A DNA stretch of 37,768 bases from a virus (taxonomy: Duplodnaviria > Heunggongvirae > Uroviricota > Caudoviricetes): the IMG/VR virus record IMGVR_UViG_2526164599_000010; one strand, given 5' to 3'. This document shows, piece by piece, positions 1 to 36,779 of this stretch (position 1 is its first letter; each line of letters opens with the position of its first letter). Both the position numbers and the translations under genes were made by a program. The notes beneath the pieces are model-generated. The model was not told the origin of the DNA, searched no databases, and was given only the letters and a program-made list of their open reading frames with translations.

Positions 1-211
1 ACCAGTGCCACTGACAGCCCCAGTGAAACGCTGGCAGCCACCGCAAAAGCGGTGAAAATTGCGATGGATAATGCCAATGCCCGTCTGGCAAAAGCCGGAA
101 CGGAGCAGATATTCCCAATAAGCCGCTGTTTATCCAAAACGTCGGTTTACAGGAAACGGTAAATCAGGCTTCTGGCGCATTACAGAAAAACCAGAATGGC
201 GCAGATATTCC
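1..211. repeat. Inverted-repeat arm (gin-proximal side) of the invertible tail-fibre segment; mirrors 5499..5710
   Basis: By eye: 1..94 equals the reverse complement of 5617..5710 and 95..185 equals the reverse complement of 5525..5615; a single A is missing between 94/95 relative to the partner; identity decays at 186..211. Repeat reaches the window edge, so true length is unknown. Confidence 0.9.
130..155. other. gix-like recombination site (gixR-like) for a Gin/Hin-family invertase
   Basis: Sequence TTATCCAAAACGTCGGTTTACAGGAA: 26-bp imperfect palindrome with half-sites TTATCCAAAAC / GTTTACAGGAA, matching the recalled gix/hix architecture; identical inverted copy at 5555..5580. Confidence 0.8.
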
Positions 212-772
212 AAACAAAGATAAATTTACGCAAACAATAGGTGCTTGCCGCTCTTTTCATGGTGCTATTAGCACAGGTGCAGGAAACTGGACGACGGCAC
301 AATTGATTGAATGGCTGGATTCTCAAGGGGCATTCAATCACCCATACTGGATGTGCAAATGTTCATGGTCATACGGCAATAATAAAATTATTACCGATAC
401 TGGCTGTGGAACTATTCATCTTGCAGGTTGCGTTATTGAGGTTATGGGTAATAAAGGAGCCATGACCATCCGTGTAACCACCCCGAGCACTTCCAGCGGT
501 GGCGGAATTACTAACGCTCAATTCACTTATATTAATCATGGTGATGCTTATGCTCCTGGCTGGCGACGAGACTACAACACGAAAAACCAGCAGCCTGCAT
601 TTGCTTTAGGGCAAACAGGAAGCACTGTCGGAAATGATAAAGCTGTTGGCTGGAACTGGAATAGCGGGGTCTATAACGCAAATATTGGTGGCGCAACAAC
701 ATTAATCCTACATTTCAATATGAATACGGGGAGCTGCCCTGCTGTACAGTTCCGCGTGAATTACAGGAACGG
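156..772 (+). pseudogene. S': Alternative tail-fibre variable part S'v, 5' fragment (interrupted by IS insertion)
   Basis: Open frame (phase 0) from 72 to the IS junction at 772; same phase relative to gix as Sv on the other arm; track ORF 303..800 is this frame read through into 9 IS-encoded codons. Continues in frame at 2901 once the IS and one ACGG copy are removed. Confidence 0.8.
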
Positions 773-4315: not shown

Positions 4316-6076
4316 TTAAACGCTCGCTACATTATACCATGTGCCATTTATATACTTTTGAACGGGTCTGTAATAAACACCCGCAATATTATCGGCGGAG
4401 TTGGAACCTGTATCCTGAACATTTATACCAGACAATACATGACCTGAAGGGCACTGGAAGTTCCATGTTTGCCAGTTGTTCACACCATAATATTGCTGTG
4501 AGCCAAGCCGAACATCTTTCACATATCTGGAATCAATGTTACCCCAGTTGCTTGGTTGTATCTGACCGTTTACAGCAAATGTCACCGAGTTATCTGTATT
4601 TCGCTGACTATAGAAATGCCAGCCTGAATCATCACCAAGCTCTGCAACAGTTGGTCTTGACGAATTTCCCCACAAGTTAAATGATGCATTACGGGCAGCG
4701 GTATTTGCACTTGAAAGTGTGAAGAACTTACTTTCCCCAGCCTGAATACCCTTTAATGATCTTGCTGAACCATTTATAAAGCGGAATACATGCACACCAT
4801 TAGCATAAGCATCCAGCACCCCATCACCATTTTGTTTAAACCCGGTATCGTTATCTCCTAAAACTATTGAATTGCCACCCAGGGCATTAGCCGTTCCAAT
4901 CCCCAGATTTCCGCTAAAAATGGCATTAATACCGAATATTGAGTGAGAACAATAAAACCCTCGCCCATTGTTAAAATCCAGAATAGCTTGTGCGTTCGTG
5001 CTTTCTGTCGCGGGATTAGTTGCTCCCCACTTATATGTTGTTTGACCGACAGTATAATCCTGAGTTGGAACAATAACCGTTAGCCCTTCTTCAGCAGAAA
5101 CCCGCACAGGAAAAGCCCTGCCTTCAACGTAAAAAACGCTGCATACATCATCTTCTTTAAGGCTTGTTACAATGGAATGGATTGCGCGCTCATTAGTCTG
5201 ATACGTCGAAAAATAACCTGCCGCATATGAACCACGATCAGTCCAGCCACCAGGCATTACCATTCCATTGAATTCGCAGTTATTCATTGCGTAATCACCA
5301 CTGGCAGATGTGGTCGTTATAATCACTCTGGAAGCCAGCTCGCCAGTGCTGCCTGTGGAACGCCGGAAAATAACTGGATACCACTTTCCACCAACTGCAT
5401 TAGACGGCGCATTAAATGCGTACTGCCGCATTCCTTTTTTCTTATCCACCTCGCCTTTGCTGTAAACATTAATGTTACTCAGGAAGCGATCCTTATCAGG
5501 AATATCCGCGCCGTTCTGGTTTTTTTGTAATGCGCCAGAAGCCTGATTTACCGTTTCCTGTAAACCGACGTTTTGGATAAACAGCGGCTTATTGGGAATA
5601 TCTGCTCCGTTCCGGTCTTTTGCCAGACGGGCATTGGCATTATCCATCGCAATTTTCACCGCTTTTGCGGTGGCTGCCAGCGTTTCACTGGGGCTGTCAG
5701 TGGCACTGGTTAGCTGAACGAGTCCTTTTTTGTTCAGGCTGGCATCATAGATATCCAGATTTTCACGTGCTGTACGCTGTGCTGATGCCCCGGCAGTTTT
5801 AATTTCGCTGAGGTTATTTTTTATCAGCAGCGCGTTATTGCTCATAATGGCTTTAATGGACAGTGCAAGCTGGTTTAATTTTGTTTTATCCGGTTGAATA
5901 CCGGCTTCTTCCAGCGTGTTTAATAACTCCGCCTGCACAATATTAAACCAGTCCATGCCGGGCCATGTGATAACATTATTCCCGTCACCTTCTGAAAACC
6001 AGCGAACGATAGCACTACGCTGGGCGGATACGGGCGGCATGACGGTTACGCCGCTGTCGTTATCAATATAAAACAT
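4316..6076 (-). CDS. S: Tail fibre protein S (constant part Sc fused to variable part Sv across the gix site; the S-U expressing orientation)
   Basis: 586-aa ORF running continuously through gixL (5555..5580); N-terminus [26 protein letters not shown]; Gly/Asn-rich C-terminal region typical of fibre tips. Confidence 0.85.
5499..5710. repeat. Inverted-repeat arm (S side) of the invertible segment; partner of 1..211
   Basis: See the 1..211 entry; this copy keeps the S reading frame intact. Confidence 0.9.
5555..5580. other. gix-like recombination site (gixL-like) inside the S coding sequence
   Basis: TTCCTGTAAACCGACGTTTTGGATAA, exact reverse complement of the site at 130..155. Confidence 0.8.
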
Positions 6077-9846: not shown

Positions 9847-11326
9847 TAATCACCTCAATACTGACACCACCGGGAACAAACAACGGGTTGCTGATACCGT
9901 TCCTGCGGGCCAGCCGTTGCCAGTTCCGGCTGTTTCCTGTGTAACGGTACAGGGCCACCATTGCAGGCATCGTCTCCGGCAGGCGGTGCGTTTCACTGCC
10001 CGCCAGTTGCAGCCCGCGTTTTTCCAGGTCGGCAACAACCAGCAGACGCAGTTGCGTAAGCTGAACACTGTCTGTCGAAAAGCCCTGCTCAGATGCCGTC
10101 AGAATGACGGTATCCAGTGCAGCCCCCAGCATGGCGGCTGTTTTTCCGATATCGGACACACTTTCAAATACCGGGGGCGTGGCTGTACCACTGTCTGAAA
10201 AGGATACCTGTGAAAAACCGCTGTCCGGGGTTATGGCAGTTAACTGTAACTGTCCCTGTGTGACGGTAGCAGATGTGCTGCTGGCCCCGCTGGCTGTGCC
10301 GGTTGTGGTGGACGGAGCATCCAGTACAGGTGCACGGGCGGCATTATCCATCCGGCGACTGAAATCCAGTGCCGCAGTCAGTGCCTGGCTGGCAGCTTCT
10401 GCCCGGTATGTCTGCGCCGCTGCCAGCATGACGTAGTTCAGTGTGGCAATATTTTTTTCTGCAACCGGACTGTTGTACGAGGTTGTGATTGTCCCCTGTC
10501 TGCCTGCGGTGGCGGCATGGCGACGTTCGAATCGCTGCGCCAGACGGTTCCATGTGGAAAATGCTGTCCGGGTATCGCATAACGATGAAACGCCGGATAA
10601 CGCCCCCATCAGCGAGGAGGCCAGCATGGCAGGCTGGTTAATCAGGCTGGTCACAGAGCCTTTCATCGCAGAAAGTGACCCCATCAGGCCGCTGACAGTC
10701 TGGGTGATCCCCAGATTATCCACCGCATCACAGATATCATCGATGACACCGGTTACGGCATCCATTACGGCTGTTGCCGCCGCTGTGCCATCTTTTACGG
10801 TCTGCCAGACAGAGGACAGCGTATCTCCCAGAGAACCGGTTACAGCAACAGCCTGTGCCGGTACGGCTGCACTGGTGTCTGTTTCTGCGTCCGGGGCAGT
10901 ATCCTGCAACGACGGATAAACGGTAACGGTGAACGCGTAATAATTCAGTTCATCCGCTTTAGTGCGGCATTCCCATGAATCCACCATGACGTCCACAGTG
11001 CCGAAATCAGGATGTACCAGCTCACCGCTACCCGGAGCATCAAGAGCATCCATCAGCGCACCCGCTTCATCTCTGGCTGTTTCTGCGTTGCTGTTCAGAA
11101 TGCAGGCGCTGAATGTACGGGAGCGAAGCTTTTTCCCCAGGTCATTGACGCCGCCGGTATCACGTAACGGGTACTCGCGTTTAACCAGACGACGTCCGCC
11201 AGCCTGTTTTTGCTCCTCGATGACGAGAAACGGCACGTTACGGAACGTGCCTTTGCCGGTTGTTTTCTTACCACCGCTGATTTTATCCCGGACAGCATTA
11301 ACGGCATTTAAAGCATCTTCAAACAT
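9839..11326 (-). CDS. N: Tail protein, DNA-circularisation protein (Mu N position)
   Basis: 495-aa ORF directly downstream of the tape-measure gene; conserved Mu order. Confidence 0.7.
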
Positions 11327-17481: not shown

Positions 17482-18399
17482 TTACAGGTAGTCAGCGACA
17501 ACCAGTTGCAGCTTGCCCTTCATCTCGTTGGAGACGGTGGTATTGCCATCCGCGAACAGTTCACGGTTAAGCAGTTGCTCTGCGGCTTTTTCCAGCCCGA
17601 CCGGTACAACGATATGCGTCGGCTTCAGGCCCAGCTTCTTACCGCCATCACCTTCAAAAGATCGCATCAGTTGCCAGCCCTTCCAGAGGTTATCCAGCGT
17701 CAGATCGCCTTTTACCGCGACAGCCATCTGCCAGAAGCCGTAACCGGCAGCACGGCGGGCGCTGGCACCAAACAGGAACTCGTTATCCATAAAAACGTGG
17801 TCGTCATCGATACGGGTACGTGCGACCAGCTCCGGTTTGCGGCGCTCCTGGAAAATCAGCGGTTTGACTGCGCGGGAGCAGTCCAGCAGATAGAACGGCA
17901 GACCGCTGAAGCTGTCCTGCTCAACGATGTTGGAGGTATTAACCGCGCTGCCCGTGCCGTCCACATTCGGATATACCGGATGCTCCTTGTCGAAGAAGTT
18001 CTGACCGTCATAGCACGGCTGGGTAAAGCCATCTTTCAGAAGTTTAAAAATCAGCTCATCCGGCTGAACTGCCGCAGAACGGCCCATCTCCTGAAAAATC
18101 GGCGCATAAATACCCAGATTGTCATCCTCGAAGTCATCACGGGAAATACCCACGGTGCCTTCAAACGTTTTATTGGCGATGGAGTAGCCATGCGCTTCCA
18201 TTTGCTGAATGGTTCGCTTACCCACCCATTCTTTCAGGGTCGGGAATTTACCCAGCCAGCCATAGGTATTACTGCGGGTGGAAGAGTTCACCACCATTGC
18301 AATTTTGCTGTACTGCGACGGGGCGTCTTCAAGACCGCCCTGAAAATCCTTACGCCAGGAGGTCATCAGGGCTTTAATGGATGCCGGGGTGACAATCAT
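17482..18399 (-). CDS. T: Major capsid protein (Mu T)
   Basis: 305-aa ORF MIVTPASIKALMTSWRKDFQ...; size and position match the Mu major head subunit; followed by a strong terminator. Confidence 0.85.
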   Translation of the reverse strand: MIVTPASIKALMTSWRKDFQGGLEDAPSQYSKIAMVVNSSTRSNTYGWLGKFPTLKEWVGKRTIQQMEAHGYSIANKTFEGTVGISRDDFEDDNLGIYAPIFQEMGRSAAVQPDELIFKLLKDGFTQPCYDGQNFFDKEHPVYPNVDGTGSAVNTSNIVEQDSFSGLPFYLLDCSRAVKPLIFQERRKPELVARTRIDDDHVFMDNEFLFGASARRAAGYGFWQMAVAVKGDLTLDNLWKGWQLMRSFEGDGGKKLGLKPTHIVVPVGLEKAAEQLLNRELFADGNTTVSNEMKGKLQLVVADYL

Positions 18400-19481: not shown

Positions 19482-19677
19482 GTCCTGCTGCTCATCATGG
19501 TTTGTGAGCAGTCAGTTTGCGGGAGGTGCGGGAAAATCTGGGGTTATGCTATTTGAGTAATGGAGAAAGAAAGTGAAAGGAAGATAAAACGGGATTCATA
19601 CACCGTTAAATACCGGTTTAAAAATCCCGTGGCGCGTTTTAAAAAATCTGTGCGGCTGATTTCATGTCTGATTCCGT
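19482..19677. promoter_or_regulatory. G-I intergenic region: expected site of the Mu central strong gyrase site (SGS) and late promoter PI
   Basis: 196-bp non-coding gap at the centre of the prophage, between genes G and I where the Mu SGS is described; contains the 10-mer AGGTGCGGGA (19523..19532), shared with the lys upstream region. Confidence 0.6.
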
Positions 19678-26825: not shown

Positions 26826-27327
26826 CCGCCCCCCTGATATTCCAGATTGCCATTTCCACTTCGCGACGGTTCATCAGTCCTTTCCATTTATGGCCTGCGG
26901 CAAACACCCAGCGGGCCATCTGGTCACGCGCTCCGGCGTAATCACCGGCATTGAGTTTTTTCAGCAGCGTTGATTTACTGAATGCGGTAACACCGGTGTT
27001 GAAAATAAATGTTGCCAGCGCCGTTTTCTGATATGGCGTCAGCGGCACCCTGACAAGACGATCGATTGCCGCATAAACCGGTTTTAAATCACTGTCGAGG
27101 AGAGCCATACACTCCGCATGGCTGTAACGGCGCATTTCGATATCCGGCCCGGTATGTCCCACACAGACCGTAAGCACACCGGCAATATCGCGGTAAGGCA
27201 TATAAGCGATATTTTCCAGATGGATCAGAGACTGACGGGTCATTTCCTGATAACCACCCACACCACCACCGGCAATCGTTGCCGCCAGCAGTGCGGCTTT
27301 CAGTTTTTTTGGTATCCCCGCCATCAT
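26809..27327 (-). CDS. lys: Endolysin with N-terminal signal-anchor-release (SAR) type segment (Mu lys)
   Basis: 172-aa ORF; N-terminal Gly/Ala-rich weakly hydrophobic segment (LKAALLAATIAGGGVGG) followed by a lysozyme-like domain; first late gene after C. Confidence 0.85.
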   Translation of the reverse strand: MMAGIPKKLKAALLAATIAGGGVGGYQEMTRQSLIHLENIAYMPYRDIAGVLTVCVGHTGPDIEMRRYSHAECMALLDSDLKPVYAAIDRLVRVPLTPYQKTALATFIFNTGVTAFSKSTLLKKLNAGDYAGARDQMARWVFAAGHKWKGLMNRREVEMAIWNIRGADDLRQ

Positions 27328-27398
27328 GCTTCCCTGAAAAAATGCTCTGATGGCAGTCTAAAAAATCAGGTGACAGGTGCGGGATTATGGTGACAGGA
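27328..27398 (-). promoter_or_regulatory. Candidate C-activated late promoter Plys region
   Basis: Non-coding interval between the C terminator and the lys start; contains AGGTGCGGGA (27375..27384), identical to the 10-mer upstream of gene I. Confidence 0.55.
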
Positions 27399-27423
27399 AA
27401 TAACCGGCAGGATGCCGGTTATT
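27399..27423 (-). terminator. Intrinsic terminator of the middle transcript, overlapping the C stop codon
   Basis: Minus strand reads TAA-CCGGCA-TCC-TGCCGG-TTATTTCCT; perfect palindrome AATAACCGGCAGGATGCCGGTTATT. Confidence 0.7.
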
Positions 27424-27841
27424 TTGGGCTTTCAGGTGAGAACAGATCAGGCTGATGACGCCGTGTATGCAGCTTTCTCTGGCGGGCAATAATCTGGTAG
27501 ATCTGCGGCTGGGACAGGCGGTACTGGCGACGCAGTTCTTCCATGTTACGACCATTGAACTGGCAGTAAAGCAAATCGTCGCGTAACGCGGTCAGGATAG
27601 TATCGCCACAGGGGATATAAAACTGCCGCCCGCCCAGAAAACAGGACAGGGCAACGGCCTGTTTACGGGCAAGCTCACGGGGATTGCTGACGTTCTGGCG
27701 TTTCAGTTCGTTTTCCAGAACATCAATCAGATCAACCACCGAACGGGGCCAGCGTGATTCCAGTTCCGGGGCCGGGATGTTATCAATATGTCCGATTAAC
27801 TGGCGAATTGCCGGATCGTGTTCAAATAAATCATGCTGCAT
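27419..27841 (-). CDS. C: Late-gene transcription activator C
   Basis: 140-aa ORF, last gene of the ~1.2-kb middle operon; C-terminal HTH-like region; paralogous in layout to Mor (both ..FNGRN..EL..Y..). Confidence 0.85.
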   Translation of the reverse strand: MQHDLFEHDPAIRQLIGHIDNIPAPELESRWPRSVVDLIDVLENELKRQNVSNPRELARKQAVALSCFLGGRQFYIPCGDTILTALRDDLLYCQFNGRNMEELRRQYRLSQPQIYQIIARQRKLHTRRHQPDLFSPESPK

Positions 27842-34787: not shown

Positions 34788-36779
34788 TTAAATGGCTTTT
34801 TTACGTCTGTTCTGTTCCAGTATATCCAGCGAATGATTCAGATATTCATCACGCTCAGTTTCGTATTCATCATCACGCTCCTGATTCTTCACTCGTTCCG
34901 TATTACCGGAAGGCCGGAAAATGCCGACAATTCGTGATTCTGGTGCTTCAGGTTCGGCTATCTGCGGCAGCAGCTCTGCCACTTCCAGTGCATCCATTTG
35001 TTTCTGTGCCTTAATTGCTGCTTTCGTCGCAGATTTCAGTTGTTTCTGGCGGCGGCGATATTCACGGCCTGCCGCAGCATCATTAAACGCAACAGGTGCC
35101 AGACATTCCGCTTCACAGATAAACCGACCGTCCAGGGTGTAGCAATAAACCGTGCTGTGTAGCTGTTGTGGATCAAATCTGACCACAACTTTTTTCACTC
35201 CGGCATTCATTAACGCCATGTTGTAATAAACGTTTTTCGCGCCTTTAAGGGAGCCGCCAACTTTAAGCGTAAACTCGCCTTTGCGTGAAACGTTCACCGC
35301 CTCGGCAGGCAGTAACAGCATCCGTTTTTGTTCTTCGGTTGGCTTACGCACAATCGTTCTGGCGTATTCACGCTCGAAAACATCATCAAACGAGAGTTTG
35401 CCCCCGCACATTTCTGTTTCACGGCCTGTTCTGGCATTGAACATCGCCACACCTTCGGCAAGGGTTTTCAGAAACAGCTCTGCATCAACAGCGCGGTCGC
35501 CATAGTTATCAGGTTTTGCCTGCGGATTAGGCCCCGTATATGCGCCAGCCAGTGCCGGATGCTTATCAACGTATTCCTCAAGCCCACCAACACCGAAAGC
35601 ACGTTCAACAGGTTTTGCCTGGCCCCAGCCTTTACCGGCAACAACGCTTGTCCAGTGCATTTTCGCCCCCATCAGTAAAAACAGTCCTTTTGGATCGTCC
35701 TCTTTTACCTTAAAGCGGTAGCGATTGGGCGCGCCTCCCGTCAGCCATTTATTCGCAGCACCACGGGTGTTATCAATGGTGATGTGAAAATCCTCCGGGA
35801 TACCGTAGCGAGTCACAACATCCATGAACGAGAGGCGAATTGAATCAATGTTCTCGCTCACATCGCAGCGCCAGCCCAGAATTTTTCGGGTTTTCACATC
35901 CTGCCAGAACCATGTTTTCGGGCGGATCACATCACCGTTAAACCAGCGTACAAAGACGTTATGCAGATAACCGTCGCCGTTGATCCACTGCATGGCGTCC
36001 AGGTGTTCCACAGTTCGCTGCTGTGCCGGTATCAGATGCATCAGTGCATGTTCACCTTCACGACAGGCAACAACCATTGCCTCGTCCAGTTGCTGAATCC
36101 GGCGAAAGGCCGTGGCACGGGAGGGAATACTCCAGCCATGCTCGCGGGCTGCCAGTTCCAGACGCTCATAACATTTGCGGAAGGCGGGTTTTTCCGGTCG
36201 CAGATAATCTGCAATCAGAAACTGCCAGGCATCCTCGTCAAATTCACTTTTGTGAACGTTGCGACGGGATGCACCACGTCCATCAACAAGCGCAGCCGCC
36301 CAGTCAGGCTTCGCAAACTTCTGTACCTGGTAATACTTGTCCCGCAAAGTGGATGCGCTGACCTGGTAATGCCCTGCAACGGTCGCAAAAGCCGTTTTTG
36401 TTGAAATCCCCTGGTTCAGCATTTCGTCTGCAGCCTGAACCGCAGGCAACCATTTTTCAGCAAGTCTGCGCTGGGAATCGCTGGCGTTATCCCATTTGCT
36501 CCACAGTGCCTCACGATCATAATCATGGGCTTCCAGCGTGGGGCGGGCGATTTCAAAATACCCCAGGCTTGTTTCAATCTCTCCTTGTCTCAGCAATAAC
36601 GCCGCTTTCGCTTCAACAGGTAAAGAGTTCGCATTGTATTCAATTGCTTTACCACCTTTGACACCTGCTCTAGTGCGGTTTTGCCATCCTTGCTTTTTAG
36701 CAACATAAATCACACCAGCCGATGTTTTCGGCAAACCAGGAAGATTCGCACACTCTTTCGGTGATACCCAAAGTTCCAT
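34788..36779 (-). CDS. A: MuA DDE transposase
   Basis: Track ORF 34788..36788 (666 aa); start moved to the third Met ([18 protein letters not shown]...), giving 663 aa with the ATG one nt after the ner stop; sequence recognised as MuA. Confidence 0.95.

Follow-up and report, generated by a model that had tools for sequence, protein, structure and literature searches.

A 10-base match between the Plys and PI late promoters of a Mu-type phage is not the sequence recognised by C and probably has no function of its own

The same sequence of 10 bases precedes two late genes, lys and I, of a Mu-like phage, and the question raised by this locus is whether it marks the promoters that the late activator C switches on. 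A sequence-only reading had proposed it as the candidate core of the C-dependent late promoters. Sequence comparison identifies the window, by which we mean the whole stretch of 37,768 bases analysed here, as a phage of the Mu/D108 type in inverted orientation. For most of its length it matches Mu at 97-99% identity, with Mu position 339 at its right end and the G segment at its left end. Mu 35038-36717 has no match anywhere in the window, and gin and mom therefore lie outside it, as had been said correctly of the mom region. Gene C was located directly upstream of Plys, and its product is 98-99% identical to the C proteins of Mu and D108.

27419..27841, minus strand: gene C (late transcription activator, 140 aa), from its translation, directly upstream of Plys.

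The 10-mer, AGGTGCGGGA on the plus strand, has exactly two copies in the window (27375-27384 and 19524-19533); in the phage sense, on the minus strand, it reads TCCCGCACCT. Exact matching confirmed the coordinates first proposed for the copy near lys. The copy near I had been placed at 19523..19532, one base off, and it lies 43-52 nt upstream of the I ATG (19481) rather than 42-51 nt. The distance of 48-57 nt given for lys holds for the first of two adjacent ATGs but not for the annotated one (27324), for which it is 51-60 nt. In agreement with the earlier statement, the window contains no third exact copy. The suggested search with mismatches was run on the whole window and yielded no candidate for PP: 42 sequences with one or two mismatches were found and 35 were expected, so that there was no enrichment.

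The annotated Mu sequence (AF083977) contains four 67-bp features described as "late promoter activated by C", citing Margolin et al. 1989: Plys (10403-10469), PI (17977-18043), PP (27287-27353) and Pmom (35693-35759). Without gaps, the four have cCATAAcCCC in common at feature positions 11-20, and their -10 hexamers occupy positions 42-47 (TAGACT in Plys, CAAACT in PI, TATCCT in PP, TAAGAT in Pmom). The promoter oligonucleotides of Swapna et al. extend by design 20 nt downstream of the start site (PMC4461284). When this length is subtracted from the ends of lys F and I F, +1 falls seven nt after the -10 hexamer in both promoters, and the same numbering puts the centre of the TTAT-N6-ATAA dyad of Pmom at -43.5, matching the published centre. 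The gap-free alignment of the four Mu features together with these start sites provided the register for the following elements of Plys and PI.

27335..27401, minus strand: Plys (-53 to +14), 65/67 bases identical to AF083977 10403-10469.
27384..27399, minus strand: 16-bp imperfect dyad of Plys (-51 to -36), the published C-binding site, derived from "centred at -43.5" (PMC2582627).
27381-27389, minus strand: C-box of Plys, CATAATCCC, a match to CATAAYCCC consisting of the right half of the dyad and the C-tract.
27375..27384, minus strand: TCCCGCACCT, Plys copy, exact match (-36 to -27; -35 region and upstream spacer).
27348 to 27366, minus strand: further parts of Plys, namely a T6 run (27361-27366), the -10 hexamer TAGACT (27355-27360) and the deduced +1 (A 27348; from oligonucleotide design, PMC4461284).
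19494..19560, minus strand: PI (-53 to +14), 66/67 bases identical to AF083977 17977-18043.
19507 to 19548, minus strand: parts of PI, namely the C-box CATAACCCC (19540-19548; CATAAYCCC match), the -10 hexamer CAAACT (19514-19519) and the deduced +1 (T 19507; from the oligonucleotides).
19524..19533, minus strand: TCCCGCACCT, PI copy, exact match (-26 to -17; spacer only).
19518..19524, minus strand: second TCCCGCA in PI, 9 bp downstream of the first and overlapping the -10 hexamer.

Both copies of the 10-mer lie where Plys and PI had been expected, within published C-dependent promoters (AF083977) whose start sites were confirmed. The window and Mu differ at -25 and +5 in Plys and at -53 in PI. 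The 10-mer, the C-box and the -10 hexamers are free of substitutions and occupy the same positions in both. C-dependent transcription has been published for the Mu late promoters (PMC4461284, PMC2582627), and from the 97-99% identity to Mu we infer that the window promoters would be C-dependent as well. Plys, PI and PP are each oriented in the phage sense upstream of a late operon (lys, I and, from within N, P). Each has a recognisable -10 hexamer at -12 to -7 and no consensus -35 hexamer, and a generic sigma-70 scan of the 10-mer regions detected no -35/-10 pair on either strand.

The C site of Mu is a 16-bp imperfect dyad centred at -43.5, and C gives a DNase I footprint from about -30 to -55 (PMC2582627). 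According to the summary of an extensive set of Plys point mutants, normal C-dependent activity requires only -52 to -34 and the -10 region (PMC2582627). The consensus of the C site is TTAT-N5-6-ATAA (PMC12867686), and cryo-EM on Pmom places a C tetramer upstream of the -35 element (bioRxiv 2025.05.02.651988). Relative to +1, the -10 hexamer and the C-box, the two copies of the 10-mer are 10 bp out of register, the Plys copy taking feature positions 18-27 and the PI copy 28-37. The Plys copy adjoins the dyad and lies partly inside the footprint; it shares just its first base with the dyad and just its first three (TCC, -36 to -34) with the required region. The PI copy has 0/10 bases in -52 to -34 and lies wholly downstream of the equivalent region. 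Unlike the C-binding dyad, the 10-mer has no dyad symmetry and no fixed distance from +1, and neither TTAT nor ATAA occurs within it.

These positions bear directly on the reading in which TCCCGCACCT is the core element bound by C, or defines the class of C-dependent promoters. That reading draws on the presence of both copies inside C-dependent promoters, on the overlap of the Plys copy with the downstream part of the footprint and on the local improbability of the match (discussed below). However, besides being out of register and outside the published dyad and consensus, the 10-mer is absent from PP of the window and from Pmom of Mu, which are C-dependent without it. In addition, other lineages keep their C-boxes and not the 10-mer, and the PI copy is broken in a natural variant (both below). 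Comparison with published C-binding sites, which the sequence-only reading had proposed as a check on itself, turned up sites that do not contain the 10-mer, and the proposal of a core falls on that comparison. As an element recognised by C the 10-mer fails on every side: some C-dependent promoters lack it, its position relative to -10 and +1 is not fixed, it does not match the footprint, the required bases or the consensus, and relatives do not conserve it. The 10-mer is not the sequence recognised by C, and we regard a role as a C-bound or class-defining core as very improbable.

A related arrangement is known from the Mor-dependent middle promoter Pm of Mu. Its activator site overlaps the -35 region, and it has a recognisable -10 and no consensus -35 hexamer, like Plys and PI. 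Its activator dyad is centred at -43.5, and bases just downstream of the dyad are also critical (PMC2582627; PMC4390567). Pm differs from Plys and PI in its activator and in the site, and the 10-mer occurs nowhere else in the window.

The element that is in register is CATAAYCCC, which occupies -41 to -33 in Plys, PI and PP and comprises the right half of the dyad and the adjoining C-tract. It has exactly three matches in the 37.8 kb (0.42 expected), all in the phage sense, in Plys, PI and PP, and in each it lies 24 nt upstream of the -10 hexamer. Since it matches these promoters only, it locates PP within gene N. The earlier statement that the 10-mer does not locate PP stands, as PP lacks the 10-mer; but PP can be placed, by CATAAYCCC, at 10181-10247.

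10181..10247, minus strand: PP, within gene N, without the 10-mer, 65/67 bases identical to AF083977 27287-27353.
10201 to 10235, minus strand: parts of PP, namely the C-box CATAACCCC (10227-10235; CATAAYCCC match) and the -10 hexamer TATCCT (10201-10206).

The two substitutions that separate PP of the window from PP of Mu are both in the spacer (-28 and -23).

Relatives of C were collected together with 10 kb of DNA on either side, enough to include both Plys and PI. They comprise about 21 near-identical Mu-type loci and five other lineages in which C is 54-67% identical (L004/L026/L027/L028; L031-L034; L035; L036; L029/L030). L004 is an Erwinia tracheiphila prophage; a scan of genome contigs with C as the query gave a single relative, from Erwinia tracheiphila. 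Wherever both promoters of a lineage were recovered, a C-box common to Plys and PI was present in register. The shared box amounts to 19-21 identical bases, beginning TCAGATACCGGAATC, in two lineages, and to a much shorter match in two others. A good -10 hexamer follows the box at a distance of 24 nt throughout, except in PI of L029, where the distance is 23 or 24 nt, and this spacing is conserved across six lineages (Mu and the five others). The 10-mer of Mu was not found in the five other lineages, where blocks shared off-register between Plys and PI reach at most 7 nt. In the lineages compared, evolution has kept the C-box and its spacing and not the sequence of the spacer.

The lineages with C about 62-67% identical (L004, L026-L028 and L031-L034) share a box of the form TCAGATACCGGAATC(C/A)CC, in which GGAA replaces the ATAA of Mu and over which Plys equals PI for 19-21 bp. 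A box of this type suggests a shifted specificity of C, and the similarity from promoter to promoter would be much tighter than in Mu. The T6 run of the window (27361-27366, minus strand), directly upstream of the -10 hexamer of Plys, has similarly placed counterparts in Plys of the Erwinia-type, L031-type and L036 phages; it is the second spacer feature marked in Fig. 1B of Swapna et al., where it is shared with Pmom (PMC4461284).

Within the Mu-type phages, 23 sequences show no change in the Plys copy of the 10-mer, for which no more than about 0.75 variable columns would be expected; Plys varies at -25, -22, +3 and +5. The PI copy is variant in one of 16 Mu-type loci, where it reads CCCCGCCCCT. 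This locus (L020; IMGVR_UViG_2541047851_000005, 18014-18080) has CCCCGCCCCT in place of TCCCGCACCT through substitutions at -26 and -20, and the I reading frame downstream is intact (360 aa). In 15 aligned Mu-type G-I regions, 13 of 236 columns are variable and two of these fall in the PI 10-mer, so that it is under no greater constraint than its surroundings. A search of E. coli genomes returned 41, all at least 98% identical over 201 bp, a divergence too low for power.

How surprising the match is depends on what is compared. As many as 2,996 distinct 10-mers recur within the window, and in 49% of dinucleotide-preserving shuffles some 10-mer was shared, in either orientation, between two of the seven non-coding gaps. 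When only the 67-bp segments of Plys and PI were compared, a shared block of at least 10 bases arose in 27 of 5000 such shuffles (about 0.5%); allowing any of the three promoter pairs raised this to 87 of 5000. The match is real, and it is modestly improbable only under a prior hypothesis that compares these two promoters. On the non-template strand, the spacers (-36 to -13) of 13 promoters contain 134 C (43%), 90 T (29%), 47 A (15%) and 41 G (13%), and this strong pyrimidine bias favours C-rich coincidences.

We put the probability at roughly 85% that the 10-mer is a match specific to the Mu clade in the C-rich -35/spacer DNA of two promoters, with no function of its own. C acts through the imperfect dyad that lies upstream (TTAT-N5-6-ATAA, centred at -43.5) and through the C-tract next to it, and on this account the 10-mer would be a Mu-lineage match in the C-rich DNA between that dyad and the -10 of two sigma-70 promoters. 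The Plys copy begins at the last base of the dyad, with TCC inside the required region and the other seven bases in the spacer. The PI copy, one helical turn farther downstream, is spacer throughout and forms a 9-bp tandem with the sequence that bears the -10. We infer that the two blocks came to be identical by chance, aided by the strong C/T bias, or through local sequence history, with no shared function. The only functionally relevant part of the 10-mer is most likely the TCC that continues the Plys C-box. Three observations count against the absence of function: a block of this length between the two segments is uncommon by chance (27/5000), the Plys copy is unchanged in all 23 Mu-type sequences, and the offset between Plys and PI is almost exactly one helical turn, which puts both copies on the same face of the helix.

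In a different proposal the 10-mer, or its core TCCCGCA, would be an auxiliary spacer element of the Mu lineage that depends on the helical face. It would modulate the C-independent binding of RNA polymerase in the closed complex or C-stimulated isomerisation at the two strongest promoters for morphogenesis and lysis, or bind some further factor. Besides the one-turn offset and the local improbability of about 0.5%, the presence of three copies of TCCCGCA across Plys and PI, within about 80 bp of promoter DNA, is consistent with such an element. RNA polymerase binds Plys, PI and PP without C, which acts at isomerisation (PMC4461284), and the spacer could for that reason matter. However, PP lacks the motif and yet shares with Plys and PI the kinetic step at which activation occurs (PMC4461284). 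The motif is not conserved in relatives, the summary of the Plys mutants names only -52 to -34 and the -10 region, the L020 variant exists, and no factor is known. We consider an auxiliary element unlikely, in each of these modes.

Sequence history offers another route to the same match. The 10-mer directly follows ATAA in Plys (ATAA, TCCCGCACCT), and in PI the two are separated by 10 bp (ATAA, CCCCAGATTT, TCCCGCACCT). PI and Plys may have come from one promoter, with PI gaining the 10 bp CCCCAGATTT and then a new -10; alternatively, slippage or the transfer of a patch between promoters may have produced the match, which would be a relic with no present function. The region 19514-19533 of PI (minus strand) is a 9-bp tandem, TCCCGCAcc/TCCCGCAaa, in which the -10 hexamer CAAACT comes partly from the second unit, and this tandem of the same heptamer hints at local slippage. 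The long identical Plys/PI blocks of other lineages, which suggest promoter exchange or co-evolution, would also fit a relic. Against this, no intermediate forms were found, and PI has the 24-nt spacing between C-box and -10 in all lineages, so that an insertion would have needed simultaneous compensation. On present data a relic and chance are indistinguishable; we regard the former, as a distinct origin, as quite unlikely. The preferred reading remains a match in C-rich spacer DNA without function of its own.

Earlier work on Mu already contains the promoters, the start sites, the C dyad and the 10-bp match. Swapna et al. used oligonucleotides, lys F and I F, that contain tcccgcacct (PMC4461284), and the match is drawn in their Fig. 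1B, the legend of which describes the marked features as "in the spacer region" (PMC4461284). What they marked is the same 10 bp, with no difference, so that the match is already published; that paper assigns it no function. The importance of the 10-mer is small and the useful outcome is a set of corrections. What truly marks the C-dependent promoters is CATAAYCCC, in register and 24 nt before the -10 hexamer, and this box finds PP where the 10-mer could not. If the spacer match were functional, it would add only a minor detail on the tuning of C-dependent promoters.

Four other candidate roles or features were considered and rejected. A divergent promoter containing AGGTGCGGGA on the plus strand was dismissed after a promoter/terminator scan that gave no consensus promoter on either strand. 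The plus-strand AGGTG was weighed by eye as a possible Shine-Dalgarno sequence of an antisense mini-ORF and rejected: at Plys the ATG that follows is derived from ATAA in the C-box and starts a frame of only about 22 codons, and at PI the frame has four codons and is unrelated. A role at the RNA level was discarded because both copies lie upstream of +1, outside the late transcripts. A second WWCCC, one turn downstream of the C-box, is present in PI and Pmom of Mu, in Plys of L004 and in L029; its positions vary and some promoters lack it, and it does not hold as a conserved feature. WWCCC reduces to general C-richness.

Several further features were observed in the window and its relatives. 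In C, an N-terminal Q-x-(D/E)-L-F and a C-terminal QPDLF are conserved in three aligned lineages (window 27419-27841; L004 9992-10411; L029 9995-10417), with the L, the F and the QPDLF residues invariant in the alignment; the two motifs have been reported to bind the sliding clamp (PMC12867686). At the 5' end of the lys homologue of L004 (10529-10610) there is a 9-bp tandem repeat, CCCAAAAGC, in nine copies that encode (PKS)n. The repeat is also present in L027, and far fewer copies stand at the same place in L026 and L028, so that the length of the array varies.

Window positions 1-221 repeat 5489-5710 in inverted form, first over 94 nt at 100% identity and then over 132 nt at 93%. The arms correspond to the end of the constant part of the tail-fibre gene S and the boundary of the G segment. 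They are about 5.3 kb apart, compared with the 3-kb G segment of Mu, and about 3 kb of what they enclose matches nothing in Mu. At its end the window returns to S and does not run on into gin and mom. This reflects either an assembly join that arose from G inversion or the end of a contig.

Between G and I, a block at about 19600-19670 (minus strand) surrounds the position of the annotated strong gyrase cut site of Mu (Mu 17879/17880, about 19657 in the window). Its pattern, TTTTAAACGCG...ATTTAAAC...TTTTAAAC, was seen in the G-I regions of L004 and L026-L035, and it is recognisable in all the divergent lineages although the flanking intergenic DNA differs.
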